Positions 379-5,784 are shown, numbered from the stretch's first letter. The stretch is 5,784 nt of DNA from a virus (IMGVR_UViG_2671180770_000006); one strand, 5' to 3'. The notes: a model not told the origin generated them from the letters alone. Translations and numbers: made by a program.

Positions 379-810
379 GTGCGCTGAGCCGCATTCACCG
401 CATCACAAAATTCACTTTAAAAAAGGCGGCAGAGCAGTTACGGAGTAAAACTGGTACCGCCAAACGTCACCAGAAAATGGATAACAGAGGGCGTTGCAGC
501 GTGGTTGTCTCTTAAGCGTATGGTCAACCTGACAACCCGGTGTACTCAACGGGGAAGGAATAACCCCGCCATACTTACCGCCGCGCCATTTCGCGGATTG
601 CCACAACCGGAAGCGCACGGTCGACGAAAATTTAACGACAGGCTATCTATGAACCAGCTACCTCGCCGAGCGCTTTCGCGTTATGGTCTGACTTTTCAGG
701 GAAATATCCTTTCAGTAAACTGTCAGTGCCGGATGCTCACCCGTGTCCGGCGCACGCACTCCACCTCACCCGTGGAGAACTCCTTAATCACCAACCCTCA
801 GGAGGGTGAA

Positions 811-1384: not shown

Positions 1385-1406
1385 TATTAGCCTCGTTGGT
1401 TAGCTA

Positions 1407-1625
1407 TTAACGTGGGTATGTAACCATTCTGGCAATGCTTAATGCCGCTGCTTTTTCCAGCCTGGTGATATCCTGCTCCAGAGCGGACAGATTTTCAGCC
1501 TGCTTAGTCCTGGCTTCATTGGCCCATTTCAGATCCTGCGCTGCATTAATTTTCTGGCGCATCCACTCATAAAGTTCATCATCGGTATAGTCTGGCGCGA
1601 TGATGACGGGTTCTCGTTTCTGCAT
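1407..1625 (-). CDS. Hypothetical protein, 72 aa, predicted helical/coiled (MQKREPVIIAPDYTDDELYEWMRQKINAAQDLKW...)
   Basis: ATG at 1625..1623 with GAGGA 6 nt upstream on the minus strand; follows the 42-aa gene after about 30 nt. Confidence 0.6.
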   Translation of the reverse strand: MQKREPVIIAPDYTDDELYEWMRQKINAAQDLKWANEARTKQAENLSALEQDITRLEKAAALSIARMVTYPR

Positions 1626-1654
1626 ACTGATTCCTCGCGGTGCTGTTTCGCTTA

Positions 1655-1783
1655 TCAGCCGTTAGATTTTCCCGAACTGGAAAGCGCCTGTTTAAATTCA
1701 CTGAAGCTGAGAGCTTCTTCGCCTTCGGCAAGACCATCGAAGTATTCTTCGTAAGCTTTTTCCATGATTGTGTCGAAATCCAT
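1655..1783 (-). CDS. Hypothetical small acidic protein, 42 aa (MDFDTIMEKAYEEYFDGLAEGEEALSFSEFKQALSSSGKSNG); resembles in size and position the tiny ydaF/ydaG-type ORFs of Rac-like prophages (from memory, unverified)
   Basis: Hand-translated from the minus strand (below the ORF-track length cutoff). ATG at 1783..1781 lies 1 nt after the upstream gene's TGA (GAG TGA T ATG), with AGGTGAG as SD inside the upstream gene's end. Confidence 0.5.
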   Translation of the reverse strand: MDFDTIMEKAYEEYFDGLAEGEEALSFSEFKQALSSSGKSNG

Positions 1784-1784
1784 A

Positions 1785-1940
1785 TCACTCACCTGAGTTT
1801 CTCTCCAGCCAGCGACGGGCACCATTTTCGGTTTTAAACGTTTTGCTTTTGGTATACGTCATCGCGGTGAATGTGCCGTCCTGGTTGGGAAACACGCCGT
1901 ACACCAGAGATTCGTTGTTGCCAAGCTCGATAGTATCCAT
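1785..1940 (-). CDS. Hypothetical small protein, 51 aa (MDTIELGNNESLVYGVFPNQDGTFTAMTYTKSKTFKTENGARRWLERKSGE); first gene of the leftward early operon
   Basis: Hand-translated; ATG at 1940..1938 with GAGGT 4 nt upstream on the minus strand; stop at 1787..1785 is coupled to the next gene. Confidence 0.5.
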   Translation of the reverse strand: MDTIELGNNESLVYGVFPNQDGTFTAMTYTKSKTFKTENGARRWLERNSGE

Positions 1941-2011
1941 GCTGACCTCATTTCCCCTTAACGCCGGGTGGCGGAACTAAAACCTACAGCGCCGTGCTGT
2001 TCTTGATGGGA

Positions 2012-2040
2012 ATATTAGTAACGCGGATATTTTAAGTCAA
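2012..2040 (-). promoter_or_regulatory. PL-like sigma70 early-left promoter (minus strand: TTGACT, 17-nt spacer, TAATAT)
   Basis: -35 TTGACT is the reverse complement of 2035-2040 and -10 TAATAT the reverse complement of 2012-2017, with a 17-nt spacer. It sits upstream of the leftward small-gene operon and its spacer/-10 closely resembles the PR-like promoter. Confidence 0.5.
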
Positions 2041-2137
2041 CAGTATGGCGTATGATATTTTTGATTTGGTAACTATGTAAATGTTTTTTCAAGGGAAAAA
2101 TATTAGTTATACAGCTGATTTGCAAAAGTTATGGCAC

Positions 2138-2167
2138 AAAAAAACCGACTAAGACGTCGGTTTTTTT
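2138..2167. terminator. Bidirectional rho-independent terminator just downstream of the repressor gene
   Basis: A7-CCGAC-taagac-GTCGG-T7: a perfect 12-bp inverted repeat with a GC core and A/T runs on both sides, so it gives a U-tract in either orientation. Located 27 nt beyond the repressor stop (2194-2196). Confidence 0.75.
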
Positions 2168-2193
2168 GTTGTGGATGGGGTAGTGAGCGGTGG

Positions 2194-2655
2194 CTACTGG
2201 TTACGTTTCTTTAGTGCCAGCATGTTCTCGAAGGCTTCCTCGTAGAGCTTGTTTAGTCCACGTAGCTGGTTAAGGAGTTTGGCTTTTTCTGACGCAGGTA
2301 GAATCTCGAAGAGGTTAAGTAACTCTGCCTGTTCTTCATTGACCAGCCTCCATCCTTTGCCTGAAAAGTTATCATCATAATTATCTGATGATCTTACATA
2401 ATTCATTAAGTCTTTAAGGTCTTCTCGAATGTCCTCTGGTTTTACCTTTAACAGAGCCGCAAATTTTAGCGCAGCGTCGGTATTTACCGGTATCTTGCCG
2501 TTCAGATACTGGCTAACGGTGCCTTGAGATTCGAATCCCAACAACTCAGCCGCCAGCTCTTGAGTCAGCTTCAGCTCTTTTTTTCTTGCATTCCATGCGG
2601 CTTTTAAATTCTTGCTCGCTTCTGGAGTTGCAATCACTTCGCGTGTTTTTTTCAT
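2194..2655 (-). CDS. racR: Prophage immunity repressor, CI/RacR-like, XRE-type HTH near the N-terminus, 153 aa; no recognisable LexA/S24 autocleavage domain
   Basis: HTH-like segment LTQELAAELLGFESQGTVSQYLNGK; divergent from a Cro-like gene across about 100 bp; terminator immediately downstream; C-terminal half lacks a peptidase-like motif. Symbol given by architecture match to the Rac RacR-YdaS-YdaT module, not by verified identity. Confidence 0.8.
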   Translation of the reverse strand: MKKTREVIATPEASKNLKAAWNARKKELKLTQELAAELLGFESQGTVSQYLNGKIPVNTDAALKFAALLKVKPEDIREDLKDLMNYVRSSDNYDDNFSGKGWRLVNEEQAELLNLFEILPASEKAKLLNQLRGLNKLYEEAFENMLALKKRNQ

Positions 2656-2661
2656 ACATAG

Positions 2662-2689
2662 AGTTTATTTGTTTTACCAATATTATCAA
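2662..2689 (-). promoter_or_regulatory. PRM-like promoter for the repressor (minus strand: TTGATA, 16-nt spacer, TAAACT), predicting a leaderless or near-leaderless repressor mRNA
   Basis: -10 TAAACT ends 6 nt before the repressor ATG and there is no SD upstream of that ATG, analogous to lambda cI transcribed from PRM. Hexamers read from the sequence; the start site is inferred. Confidence 0.4.
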
Positions 2690-2693
2690 AGAC

Positions 2694-2702
2694 AGTCTGA
2701 CT
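2694..2702. promoter_or_regulatory. Palindrome AGTCtGACT between the divergent -35 elements; candidate operator
   Basis: 9-bp dyad with a central T, positioned between the PRM-like and PR-like -35 hexamers. Confidence 0.3.
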
Positions 2703-2703
2703 A

Positions 2704-2732
2704 TTGATCTTTAAAATTAGCGGGGCTAATAT
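2704..2732 (+). promoter_or_regulatory. PR-like sigma70 early-right promoter (TTGATC, 17-nt spacer, TAATAT) with embedded inverted repeat ATTAGC-GGG-GCTAAT (2716-2730)
   Basis: -35 at 2704-2709 and -10 at 2727-2732. The 6-3-6 inverted repeat occupies the spacer and overlaps the -10, a typical operator position. About 30 nt upstream of the Cro-like ATG. Confidence 0.55.
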
Positions 2733-2762
2733 TTGCTCGAGGCATAACGTAGAAGGTTGGCT

Positions 2763-3038
2763 ATGAACTTAAGAGACTATTTAAAAGAGAAACATATCAC
2801 CCAGCTACAGTTTGGGAAGCTAACGGGTTTATCTCAGGTGCATGTAAGTCGAGTGCTGGGGGGCTATGAAAGATTCAGCCCTGAAAAAGCATTACGTGTT
2901 GCTGAAGTAACGAATTTCGAGGTTACACCTCATGAACTCCGGCCTGATATTTACCCGAATCCAACCGACGGCTTACCTGTTGGATTCAAGGCTAACACAC
3001 CAAATGCATCGGAGTTGATTCATGAAAATCAGGCATGA
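2763..3038 (+). CDS. ydaS: Cro-like small HTH regulator (YdaS family-like), 91 aa
   Basis: ATG at 2763 with GAAGG 6 nt upstream (the track's 2757 start is a TTG). HTH-like ITQLQFGKLTGLSQVHVSRVLGG and an ELRPD motif; divergent from the repressor. Symbol is by family resemblance. Confidence 0.75.
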   Translation: MNLRDYLKEKHITQLQFGKLTGLSQVHVSRVLGGYERFSPEKALRVAEVTNFEVTPHELRPDIYPNPTDGLPVGFKANTPNASELIHENQA

Positions 3039-3447
3039 GCACATCCGCATGGCGATGAATGCCTGGGCGCGTCCTGATGGCGAAAAAGTTCCAGCAGCTG
3101 GAATAACCCAGGCTTATTTTGAGTTGGGTATGACGTTTCCTGAACTGTATGACGACAGCCATCCGGAAGCCCTGGCTCGCAATACACAGAAAATTTTCCG
3201 CTGGGTAGAGAAAGACACCCCTGATGCAGTTGAAAAAATTCAGGCGTTGTTACCAGCGATCGAAAAAGCAATGCCGCCTCTGCTGGTGGCCCGAATGCGC
3301 AGCCACAGTTCAGCTTATTTTCGGGAGCTGGTGGAGACGCGGGAACGACTGGTGAGAGACGCTGATGATTTTGTCGCAGTGGCGATCGCTGGTTTCAACC
3401 AGATGAATCGTGGTGGCCCGGCGGGAAATATTGTGGTTGTGCATTGA
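3022..3447 (+). CDS. ydaT: YdaT-like protein (reported CII-type functional analogue in Rac/CP-933P-type prophages), 141 aa
   Basis: N-terminus MKIRHEHI and C-terminal ...VVVH match my recollection of YdaT-family proteins; GGAG 7 nt upstream; overlaps the Cro-like stop by 17 nt, consistent with coupling. Assignment is from memory, not a search. Confidence 0.7.
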   Translation: MKIRHEHIRMAMNAWARPDGEKVPAAGITQAYFELGMTFPELYDDSHPEALARNTQKIFRWVEKDTPDAVEKIQALLPAIEKAMPPLLVARMRSHSSAYFRELVETRERLVRDADDFVAVAIAGFNQMNRGGPAGNIVVVH

Positions 3448-3518
3448 CTGACAATATTCATACCGGATCGCTTCCGGCAATTCGTGAGTAAAAAGATTCG
3501 GTATCAGAAGAGGTGAGT

Positions 3519-4559
3519 ATGGCTAATGCCTGGCTCAGATTATGGCATGACATGCCAAATGATCCTAAGTGGCGAACAATTTCCAGGGTGTCAGGACAGC
3601 CAATTGCAACAGTGATGGCGGTGTATATCCACCTTCTGGTGAGCGCGTCACGAAATGTCACGACATGTCACGGCGTGTCACTACGTGGTCACATTGATGT
3701 CACGACGGAAGATTTAGCAAGTGCGCTTGATGTGACGGAAGAAGTAATTGATTCAATTTTACAGGCAATGCAGGGGCGGGTACTTGATGGAGATTTAATC
3801 ACCGGATGGGAAAAACGCCAGGTACTGAAAGAGGACAATGGCAACGTTTCACAAACCGCGAAATCCCCAGCAGAGCGCAAGAGAGCGCAGCGCGAGAGGG
3901 AAAAATTACGAAAACAGAATGAGGGGTGTCACGACGAGTCACGCATATGTCACGACATGTCACGACGAGTCACGACAGATAAAGATACAGATAAAGAATT
4001 AAACCCCACACATAACGCGCACGTGCGCGAGAGTGATCCGACCAGTGAGTCGAGTGGTACGCCGTTGCAGGCAGCAGAACCTGCATCCCTGGATGGACTG
4101 AGCGAACCCATCGGGAAATTTCCGATGGTCGATGGCTGGCATCCGTCGCCGGATTTTCGACGACGGGCTGCGTTGTGGGGGATGGCTTTGCCGGAGCCGG
4201 AATTTACACCTGCTGAACTTGCCGCTTTCCGGGACTACTGGGCAGCGGAGGGGAAAGTTTTCACGCAGGTTCAGTGGGAGCAGAAATTCGCCCGTCACGT
4301 AAATCACGTCAGGGCGCAGGTTAAGCCAGTCAGCAAGGGGGTAAACCATGCAGCAGCACCAGGTGGCACCGCATCACGGGCAGTTCAGGAAATTCGGGCA
4401 GCACGTGAGCAGTGGGAACGTGAAAACGGATTTATCAGCGACGGAAACGGTCTGGAAGCTGTGGGAACTCATGGGGGAGGTTTATTCGAACCGCTGGACC
4501 CAGAAGAACGGGGCCGCACCTTCGAAGCTCTGGATTGCACAGATTGGCGCGATGACTGA
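3519..4559 (+). CDS. Replication initiator (lambda O functional analogue): N-terminal domain, low-complexity charged linker and C-terminal domain; contains the putative origin
   Basis: Sits immediately upstream of a P-like gene; two arrays of GTCAC(GAC) direct repeats plus an AT-rich tract lie inside the ORF, the linker-embedded arrangement known for ori-lambda in gene O. ATG at 3519 with AGAGG 5 nt upstream (track start 3513 is a GTG). The last 212 nt overlap the P-like gene out of frame, so the true C-terminus is uncertain. Confidence 0.65.
   Translation: MANAWLRLWHDMPNDPKWRTISRVSGQPIATVMAVYIHLLVSASRNVTTCHGVSLRGHIDVTTEDLASALDVTEEVIDSILQAMQGRVLDGDLITGWEKRQVLKEDNGNVSQTAKSPAERKRAQREREKLRKQNEGCHDESRICHDMSRRVTTDKDTDKELNPTHNAHVRESDPTSESSGTPLQAAEPASLDGLSEPIGKFPMVDGWHPSPDFRRRAALWGMALPEPEFTPAELAAFRDYWAAEGKVFTQVQWEQKFARHVNHVRAQVKPVSKGVNHAAAPGGTASRAVQEIRAAREQWERENGFISDGNGLEAVGTHGGGLFEPLDPEERGRTFEALDCTDWRDD
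3647..3708 (+). repeat. Iteron-like array 1: six direct repeats of GTCAC(GAC) at 10-11 bp spacing (starts 3647, 3657, 3667, 3677, 3688, 3699)
   Basis: Counted directly. The helical-turn period places the repeats on one DNA face, and the phase drift makes the protein read CHD / SR / VTT in rotating frames. Confidence 0.7.
3928..4003 (+). repeat. Iteron-like array 2: five GTCACGAC-type repeats (starts 3928, 3938, 3949, 3959, 3969) followed by AT-rich GATAAAGATACAGATAAAGAATTAAA (3978-4003); candidate origin core and unwinding element
   Basis: Counted directly. The iterons-then-AT-rich layout parallels ori-lambda; the AT tract itself contains GATAAAGA twice. Confidence 0.65.
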
Positions 4560-5013
4560 GCAGCAAATCCGACAGGTCTGCCGCCAGTGCATGGACCGCT
4601 GCCGGGCGGGTGAAACATGGCCTCCGGACCTGGCTGAGTTTGTGGCACTGATTTCGGAAAGCGGAGCCAATCCATTCGGTCTGACGGTGGATGCTGTGAT
4701 GGAGGAGTACCGCCGCTGGCGCAATGAGTCCTGGCGATATGACGGAAGTGATAAGTACCCGTGGCCTCAGCCTGTGCTGTATCACATTTGCCTTGAGATG
4801 CGTTCAAAGGGGATTGAGCGCCAGATGACCGAAGGGGAATTAAAACGGCTTGCAGAACGGCAGCTGACGAAATGGGCAAAGCATGTTAGTAACGGCCTGA
4901 GCGTTCCGCCAGTCCGGCGACAACTGGCGGCACCCAAACGCCCGTCGGGGCCAACGCCAATTGAGTTGCTAAAACAGGAATATGAACGCCGGAAAGCGGC
5001 TGGGTTTGTTTGA
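4348..5013 (+). CDS. Lambda P-like replication protein (DnaB helicase loader), 221 aa
   Basis: Recalled lambda P motifs align: ...PSPGQFVAW... with PPDLAEFVAL, ESYPWK with DKYPWP, and ELRRKAADELVHMTARI with ELKRLAERQLTKWAKHV. AAGGGGG lies 6 nt upstream of the ATG at 4348. An alternative start at 4471 is possible. Confidence 0.8.
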   Translation: MQQHQVAPHHGQFRKFGQHVSSGNVKTDLSATETVWKLWELMGEVYSNRWTQKNGAAPSKLWIAQIGAMTEQQIRQVCRQCMDRCRAGETWPPDLAEFVALISESGANPFGLTVDAVMEEYRRWRNESWRYDGSDKYPWPQPVLYHICLEMRSKGIERQMTEGELKRLAERQLTKWAKHVSNGLSVPPVRRQLAAPKRPSGPTPIELLKQEYERRKAAGFV

Positions 5014-5045
5014 GTTGAGAAGTAATTTTTACCGGGAGGAAATTT

Positions 5046-5702
5046 ATGGAGACTGTTTTTGACGCACTGAAAGCGATGGGAAAAGCCACGTTGGTAGAGC
5101 TGGCTGCGCGACTTGATATCAGTCGTGAAGAAGTGCTGAACGAACTATGGGAACTGAAAAACGTTGGTTTCGTTGATAAAAGCGCGTACACCTGGCGTGT
5201 GGCTGATAACAACGTTCAGCAGGAACAGCCAGCGCAGGCAGAACTGCCGGAAGAAACCACCACAGCAACAGTAGCGAAAATCTCAGAGTGCGATTTAACC
5301 GCAACGATTGAACAACGCGGACCACAAACGGCGGATGAACTGGCTACGTTTTTCTGCATCACATCACGCAAAGTGGCTTCAAAGCTGGCAATGGCAATCA
5401 GTAAAGGTCGTCTGATTCGCGTTAATCAGGACGGTAAATTTCGTTACTGCATACCGGGCGCTGATTTACCGGCAGAGCCGGAAGCTGCATCCGTAGCGGA
5501 AACGGATGGTAAAGCCTTTCCTCAGCCAGCAGGTGCTGCGTTACCAGTCCGGGACGCAGCAACACAGGAAGAAATTAAAACAGAAACTGTGGCGGACATT
5601 GTGCAGCCGTTGCCATCGTTTACCGAAACGCAAGCAGATGAGCTGATTTTTCCGTCCCTTCGCAGGGCAAACCTAGCGCTGCGCAGGGGCTTTGTTGAAT
5701 AA
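5046..5702 (+). CDS. Hypothetical protein with two tandem winged-helix-like segments, 218 aa; first gene of the nin-equivalent region after P
   Basis: GGGAGGA 5 nt upstream of the ATG at 5046. Residues about 14-52 and 92-135 both show a helix-turn-helix then beta-hairpin pattern ([39 protein letters not shown] and [43 protein letters not shown]). Confidence 0.65.
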
Positions 5703-5784
5703 ATAAGATTTCGTGCGAACGACCCTGTAGCTGGCTGGATTTTCAGGCAATACGCACGCTTTCTGGCATCCCAGCCTTTGTCAT

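Follow-up and report, generated by a model that had tools for sequence, protein, structure and literature searches.

The 5,784-nt viral sequence IMGVR_UViG_2671180770_000006, referred to here as the window, carries at positions 379-810 a segment that had been described from the sequence alone as a GC-rich, ORF-poor island with multiple hairpins, lying between two AT-rich coding blocks. A structured 5' leader, a small RNA, a decayed gene and a recombination junction had all been suggested as its identity. The locus raises the question of which of these it is, on which strand it is read, and whether its hairpins are of any significance. We consider it very likely, and this assessment covers the scheme of DicF biogenesis outlined below as well, that the segment is the untranslated dicF part of the early-left operon of a lambdoid prophage, read on the minus strand. 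The element is an already known one, namely DicF with its untranslated region (UTR), which had been taken on the wrong strand.

Base composition, hairpins and open reading frames

The segment is indeed GC-richer than its flanks (53.2% against 41.5% for positions 1-378 and 37.8% for 811-1400). The GC content of the entire window is 48.1%, and that of its right-hand 4.4 kb (1401-5784) is 49.6%. The island is of ordinary E. coli composition, and the AT-rich parts on its two sides are the flanking dicB gene and an inserted cassette.

The stems that had been pointed out are all present with the sequences and positions given for them, CGGGG-9 nt-CCCCG at 550-568, CCGCG-6 nt-CGCGG at 581-596 and CTCCAC-7 nt-GTGGAG at 759-777. 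Neither their number nor their folding energy exceeds chance expectation: two perfect GC-rich 5-bp stems were observed, where 1.0 +/- 1.2 are expected and 138 of 500 dinucleotide shuffles reach two, and the z-scores of the minimum free energy are weak (-1.1 for the minus strand and -2.4 for the plus strand). The first two hairpins, which correspond to helices P2 and P1 of the RNA domain described below, are meaningful because of the comparative data, not because of thermodynamics. The third hairpin is conserved and its stem never varies, which is evidence neither for nor against pairing. The other hairpins of the upstream UTR have invariant stems or are broken in the Stx1c homologues, and no covariation was seen in them.

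Two repeats were noticed in this part of the sequence. The 10-mer CTCACCCGTG (CACGGGUGAG on the minus strand) occurs at 736-745 and again at 765-774, 29 nt apart, and both copies form hairpin loops in the upstream UTR; the doubled motif, which Stx1c phages with an N gene have too, looks like a paired binding site. Positions 664-680 are a partial duplicate, 85 nt upstream, of 579-595, that is, of the P1 hairpin and the junction following it. One IMG/VR locus (L028) looks like the product of a deletion between these two copies.

The scarcity of open reading frames was also confirmed, the only long ones being an in-frame upstream extension of dicB, a frame running into the ATG at 811 and a 68-aa ORF (Table 1). 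None of the long frames through 379-810 has a match in Pfam, PHROG or PADLOC. It is extremely unlikely that the segment is a decayed protein-coding gene: long frames do extend across it (505-1086 on the plus strand, 412-618 on the minus strand), but besides lacking relatives in these profile libraries they have TTG or GTG as their start codon and overlap the DicF sequence. Natural variants of the region contain 1-nt indels (CCCC vs. CCCCC) inside P2 and changes in loop length, their substitutions are compensatory and keep the RNA helices, and from E. coli prophages to P1 the region is better conserved than the genes next to it.

Identity of the segment and gene organization

Read on the minus strand, positions 805-244 share ~97% identity with the untranslated ydfC-dicF-dicB region of the E. 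coli K-12 Qin prophage and of phage Tritos, and they align with NCTC86 as well. The spacings also match, at about 330-340 nt on the upstream side of dicF and about 180 nt between dicF and dicB; in K-12 the ydfC-dicF distance is 340 nt and the dicF-dicB distance 174 nt. Homologues of dicB and ydfC flank the UTR (Table 1), and ydfB, ydfA and a DicA/cI-type repressor gene follow rightward on the same strand. From right to left the operon, which is a cell-division-inhibitor operon, would read repressor, ydfA-ydfB-ydfC, cassette, dicF, dicB and ydfD. Part of the window between 300 and 1100 is present in 4582 of 5426 complete E. coli genomes. DicF was among the first bacterial regulatory RNAs to be described.

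Table 1 Features in and around positions 379-810 of the window
Feature	Position	Strand	Evidence or remark
dicB, 62 aa	55-243	minus	Pfam PF05358 DicB, 127 bits, positions 1-62 of 62; also PHROG match
dicF-dicB spacer resembling STnc100	211-426	minus	RF02076, 32.1 bits vs. gathering score 47, E 3e-4
Putative long-range stem, 3' arm	261-279	minus	Inverted repeat I1; directly upstream of dicB ribosome-binding site
dicB in-frame upstream extension	ends 378	minus	Sets left edge of the island
Putative long-range stem, 5' arm	396-414	minus	Inverted repeat I1; just 3' of DicF U-tract
68-aa ORF overlapping DicF	412-618	minus	ORF listing
DicF small RNA, seed and Rho-independent terminator hairpin	424-475	minus	Rfam RF00039
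AU-rich linker between domain and DicF 5' end	476-488	minus	Composition, 31% GC
Structured RNA domain, 122 nt	489-610	minus	Covariance model R1, 140.7 bits
Helix P0, closing	607-600 with 500-493	minus	Also proposed by RNAalifold
Helix P1 (hairpin CCGCG/CGCGG, 581-596)	596-592 with 585-581	minus	Also proposed by RNAalifold
Helix P2 (hairpin CGGGG/CCCCG, 550-568)	568-564 with 554-550	minus	Stem variants
Helix P3, 9 bp, invariant 19-nt loop	538-530 with 510-502	minus	Pair count
Pseudoknot	574-569 with 523-518 (and 579-577 with 517-515)	minus	Also proposed by RNAalifold
Open frame running into the ATG at 811	505-1086	plus	The ATG is the right edge of the island
Upstream UTR, modules A and B	611-805	minus	~97% identity to K-12 Qin; 81-83% to Stx1c phages
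Third hairpin with loop motif CACGGGUGAG, and second hairpin with the same loop motif	within 611-805 (third, 777-759)	minus	
91-aa ORF, convergent cassette member	811-1086	plus	Good Shine-Dalgarno sequence; RefSeq hypothetical protein
106-aa ORF, operon-sense cassette member	1064-1384	minus	phrog_6937, E 3e-69; absent from K-12 and Tritos
ydfC homologue, last conserved coding gene before the UTR	1407-1625	minus	phrog_1744, E 3e-39; annotated ydfC in NCTC86

The window resembles the K-12 Qin dicBF operon (RF00039; Faubladier 1990; Balasubramanian 2016, PMC5069750) in gene order, in the seed and terminator of DicF and in its spacers. It differs in its immunity and replication modules and by a 588-bp two-gene cassette between ydfC and the UTR; in addition, two bases are substituted in the DicF hairpin and three in the upstream domain.

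The original prediction was right in regarding the region as probably non-coding and in naming a small RNA among the candidates, and wrong in the strand and the partner gene, the functional strand being the minus strand with its dicF segment. Rfam matches are confined to that strand, and the covariation model presented below fits it too, its G-U pairs becoming A-C on the plus strand. These observations speak against a plus-strand reading, in which 379-810 would be a structured 5' leader or promoter region of the gene at 811-1086, or a plus-strand small RNA. Such a reading could draw on the strong Shine-Dalgarno sequence of the 811 ORF directly after the region, on the plus-strand fold z-score of -2.4 and on the need of the 811 gene for a promoter somewhere upstream. 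A leader of the 811 gene is nevertheless unsupported, because the same ~330 nt occur in K-12 Qin and in Tritos, both of which lack that gene, and because the plus strand of 379-810 yielded no sigma-70-like site; we judge the plus-strand reading very unlikely.

The right edge and the inserted cassette

Homology to K-12 and Tritos ends at ~798-805, and the next 588 bp up to ydfC are absent from K-12. Judged from these alignments, a two-gene cassette has been inserted at the right edge (~805), which is a genuine mosaic junction; the suggested recombination junction applies at this edge and not elsewhere in the region. The two cassette ORFs overlap by 23 nt at their 3' ends. Only 197 of the 5426 genomes fully cover the cassette arrangement, and the exact 91-aa protein is always encoded at the same position and in the same arrangement, beside varying immunity modules. 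No match to this protein was found in Pfam, PHROG or PADLOC. A defence system or another known function was considered for the cassette proteins and rejected, PADLOC and Pfam giving none.

Further to the right in the window, clusters of TGTCACGAC-type direct repeats at ~3650-3700 and ~3925-3975 lie inside a 348-aa replication-initiator ORF and are probably origin iterons. A perfect A7-stem-loop-T7 bidirectional terminator at 2139-2168, between the repressor gene and the early-left promoter region, has weak Rfam matches to STnc370 and IS128. A small terminator-like hairpin, ACAGC ACGGC GCUGU, with a U-rich run is found at 1986-2000 of the minus strand, in the leader just upstream of ydfA.

DicF and its processing

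The match to RF00039 at 475-424 of the minus strand scores 70.5 bits (gathering score 48, E 1.5e-14) and extends over all 52 positions of the model. In its first 20 nt the sequence does not differ from K-12 dicF, and the terminator hairpin GGCGGUACCAG...CUGCUCUGCCGCC is followed by UUUUUU, the U-tract occupying 423-418. As in K-12, with which it is syntenic, the gene is located inside a prophage dicB operon between ydfC and dicB.

In K-12, DicF together with Hfq represses ftsZ, xylR, pykA and manX, as known from the literature. Its 5' end is made by an RNase E cut of the polycistronic transcript. Its 3' end has two origins: Rho-independent termination gives an RNA of 53 nt, and read-through RNA cut by RNase III gives one of 72 nt (PMC5069750, PMC9438474, PMC6582626). 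In the window, RNase E would presumably cut within the AU-rich linker at 488-476, and RNase III would cleave read-through RNA at a 19-bp stem formed by 414-396 and 279-261. The arms of this stem are 95% complementary and 116 nt apart, and the stem is conserved in 176 loci, its changes being wobble-neutral. The 3' end of the 72-nt form, computed as 475-71=404, falls within the 5' arm. We infer that the stem is the probable RNase III substrate yielding 72-nt DicF, and from its position it could couple the release of DicF to dicB translation.

The same stem encloses the STnc100-like part of the dicF-dicB spacer. STnc100 (RF02076) is a candidate Hfq-associated sRNA of Salmonella, and the spacer (426-211, minus strand) aligns along the entire model, although its score is below the gathering threshold and several of the model pairs are unformed. 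Sub-threshold matches of this kind also occur in K-12, pPE4 and P1.

A conserved pseudoknotted RNA domain upstream of DicF

A sensitive search of phage genomes showed that a sub-block of the UTR, ~607-485 of the minus strand, is conserved far beyond Qin-like prophages. The sample collected from IMG/VR and GenBank loci comprises 128 copies, which represent 69 distinct sequences. Base pairs were counted in a MAFFT alignment of 50 sequences, with shuffled alignments and pairing partners slid by 1-3 columns as controls. In this alignment 94.7% of the paired cells are compatible with pairing, compared with 34-50% in the slid controls, and eight pairs show changes on both sides, amounting to 23 cells, a number reached by none of 500 shuffles.

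The domain consists of four helices and a pseudoknot, in which GUAUGG in the junction between helices P1 and P2 is paired with CCAUAC in the P3 loop (Table 1). Examples of compensatory change are the replacements of U-A by C-G in the pseudoknot and in helix P3 of phages P1 and P7. Helix P1 is paired in 96% of cells and is nearly invariant, and hence shows little covariation. In helix P2 at least seven stem sequences form the same hairpin (CGGGG/CCCCG, CUGGGG/CUCCAG, CUGGG/CCCAG, CAGGGG/CUCCUG, CAGGUG/CACCUG, GGGU/ACCC and GGGGU/ACCCC), and despite these changes of the stem the loop is pyrimidine-rich (UCC/CUCC) in all variants. The junctions and the P3 loop are invariant. The window copy has three substitutions that weaken P3. 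The compensatory changes provide good, not overwhelming, evidence for a pseudoknotted four-helix domain, since the independent lineages that contribute covariation are few, namely P1/P7, cdtI/F1055 and a small set of P2 variants.

A covariance model of the domain (R1) gave exactly one match per locus in 71 of 71 loci, and a second copy in the right operon, which would have been an analogue of putR, was rejected on this ground. The one further match of R1 in the window, at 3924-3979, scores 12.6 bits, which is at chance level, and falls in the iteron-like repeats. The cloverleaf-like shape of the domain suggested a tRNA-like identity, which was rejected as ARAGORN finds no such RNA. A search of Rfam 15 with cmscan (E<=1) returned no family over 489-610, nor over the homologous positions in K-12, P1, cdtI, F1055 and pPE4. 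Judged by Rfam 15 and the searchable literature, some relevant older papers lying outside the latter, the domain appears to be undescribed as a structured RNA.

Distribution and genomic context of the domain

The domain is carried by cdtI, Stx2c phages, 2H10, Salmonella phage F1055, pPE4 and P1/P7. It is present in 4307 of the 5426 complete E. coli genomes (79%), where the matched positions carry no annotation. In each of the 18 context types inspected, a terminator lies 15-45 nt downstream of it; this terminator has a GC-rich hairpin, whose stems co-vary, and a U-tract. A DicF seed stands between domain and terminator in some lineages only; cdtI, 2H10, F1055 and P1 keep the domain with no DicF-like seed and have ~10-20 nt between domain and terminator. 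The distance from the -10 element of Pban to the start of the domain is ~30 nt in P1, and in cdtI the domain is found ~280 nt downstream of a PL close to the consensus. The repressor gene precedes the domain in mEp460 and 2H10, and no N gene intervenes.

The 'dicF-like region' in the annotation of P1 (NC_005856, 68791-68892) overlaps the domain in its 3' half and also the terminator, the annotation being a name of similarity and not of function. The P1 copy scores 86 bits with R1 and is the source of key compensatory changes. In contrast to the window, in P1 the domain is the 5'-terminal element of the ban operon, with tRNA genes after it and no DicF seed.

Two loci deserve separate mention. 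A locus of Salmonella enterica (L007) has a DicF-pattern match at 3663-3684 of the minus strand with no 122-nt domain upstream, and R1 reaches at most 9 bits elsewhere in that locus. In cdtI (L017), positions 40-228 of the minus strand, within the right-hand regulatory region, contain adjacent above-threshold Rfam matches to C4 antisense RNA (68 bits) and isrK (60 bits).

The position of the domain relative to DicF is relevant to one possible role, that of a processing or stability platform. As a folded roadblock it would determine where RNase E cuts to form DicF-type 5' ends, and it would protect the 3' end of the ydfABC mRNA, with no effect on RNA polymerase. Between the domain of the window and the DicF 5' end there are 13 nt, which form the AU-rich linker; furthermore, structured 5' neighbours are known to direct RNase E cuts of sRNAs derived from 3' UTRs, MicL reportedly being a case. 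Formation of the DicF 5' end by RNase E is itself established (PMC5069750). Against this, cdtI, 2H10, F1055 and P1 keep the domain in the absence of a DicF-like seed, in P1 it stands at the 5' end of the transcript with no upstream mRNA to protect, and DicF-like sRNA cassettes also occur without it. Weighing these points, we find a platform role doubtful.

Loci without the domain and their relation to N

Stx1c-type phages and 88 IMG/VR loci have the same UTR with P1-P3 exactly excised. What is left of the domain is P0, as the small hairpin GUUGU-GAAUA-ACAAC, and the terminator and the downstream sequence are intact. A rival to every functional proposal is that the domain has no function.

Genes for the antiterminator N, of Stx or lambda type, were searched for by tblastn with a working positive control, and were found in 0 of 128 domain-bearing loci, 107 of which have at least 1.5 kb of upstream sequence; the recurrent upstream ORF clusters of these loci have no match to Pfam N_peptide. 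Among domain-less loci with at least 2.5 kb upstream, N is present in 22 of 57, and 30 of the 57 are ydfA/DicA-type operons with no detectable N. These counts come from linked modules and the events are not independent. The domain never co-occurs with N, yet it is dispensable in N-less operons. A strict complementarity between domain and N was therefore rejected: the relation holds one way only, 30 of 57 domain-less loci being N-less. The domain is not obligatory in N-less operons, and this weakens any reading of it as an antitermination element.

Comparison with put, nut and riboswitch-like elements

The put RNAs act in cis on RNA polymerase via the zinc-binding domain of the beta' subunit and suppress termination. 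The sites putL and putR of HK022 and putL of HK639 resemble the domain in position: they lie in an early operon between the promoter and the terminators, and the phages concerned have no detectable N. Both kinds of element are cis RNAs of ~70-125 nt with invariant unpaired bases, and by eye they have short motifs in common (ACCAUGCG, GCGCGGCGG and, in putL, CGAA-GGCGCG). Their architecture differs, put consisting of two stems and a triplex and the domain of four helices with a pseudoknot between loop and junction.

A covariance model of put (R2), built from 23 put sequences, gave control scores of 96 bits for HK022 putL, 87.5 for HK639 putL and 42 (E 9e-7) for HK022 putR, on which it had not been trained. 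At E<=10 it found nothing in the window or in seven other loci that carry the domain, those of K-12, Tritos, NCTC86, P1, cdtI, F1055 and pPE4. In the other direction, a profile HMM of the domain (nhmmer) and R1 with filters off found nothing at the put sites. The identification of the domain as a put RNA is therefore rejected by nhmmer, R1 and R2, the last validated on the untrained putR. A functional analogy between the two is possible. A separate put element near the operon promoter was also considered, since sequences in the cdtI leader and at 2000-1941 of the minus strand of the window look put-like by eye, and was discarded as R2 has no match there.

Lambda N and its nut sites perform the task in question, read-through of the early-left terminators. 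By eye, a boxA-like GUGCUCUC(U/A) lies just 5' of the domain in the copies of cdtI, F1055 and the L052 type, whereas the K-12-type copies match boxA less well and there is no boxB-type hairpin. A lambda-type nut site was accordingly rejected, in view of the missing boxB hairpin and the lack of a cognate N in the 128 loci.

The layout of a riboswitch or attenuator, a conserved aptamer-like domain directly before an intrinsic terminator, is present. Inspection of the 18 context types revealed no conserved alternative (antiterminator) pairing between domain and terminator. The second rival role has to be weighed against this background, namely a ligand- or factor-sensing leader that switches the terminator, or else a ~180-nt non-coding RNA, made of domain and terminator, that acts in trans as a protein sponge or by pairing of the CU-rich P2 loop with Shine-Dalgarno sequences. 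In favour of this role are the layout of a structured domain followed by a terminator, the invariant junctions and P3 loop, and the pseudoknot; a CUCC-type motif is kept in the P2 loop while the stems change, and the predicted primary transcript of P1 would consist of domain and terminator alone. On the other hand, no conserved alternative pairing with the terminator was seen, the domain has no Rfam match, and it can be cleanly deleted from otherwise intact operons. We know of no ligand or partner for it. A sensor or trans-acting RNA thus appears unlikely.

Possible role of the domain in early transcription

The operon is normally repressed by a DicA-type repressor. Once it is transcribed, the domain would act in cis, its target being either the transcription complex or the nascent RNA. 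Stopping at the adjacent terminator would release an sRNA, and read-through would reach dicB, or kil and the recombination genes. From its sequence context we tentatively propose that the domain sets the balance between termination and read-through at this terminator. The context that supports such a role consists of the terminator that follows the domain in 18 of 18 context types, the nearby promoters Pban of P1 and PL of cdtI, and the absence of N in the 128 loci. The unremarkable z-scores, the small number of covarying lineages, the lack of an alternative pairing and the weakened P3 of the window copy count against it. In a more general form, and with equal reserve, the domain may represent a new class of cis-acting phage RNA that governs read-through of the first early-left terminator, by antitermination or attenuation independent of put and N. 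A put-like mechanism has been presumed in a recent paper for an N-less lambdoid phage (PMC12315714).

Antitermination by the domain would bear on the way in which early antitermination is achieved in lambdoid phages that lack N. If the proposal is true, a single cis-acting class would be common to Qin-like prophages, including that of K-12, to the N-less phages cdtI and 2H10, and to the ban operon of P1; it would explain the expression of kil or dicB and of the recombination genes in N-less phages, as well as the ratio of DicF to dicB mRNA. The UTR upstream of DicF, hitherto treated as a spacer, holds a domain that is conserved from E. coli prophages to P1 and that sits in E. coli K-12 itself.
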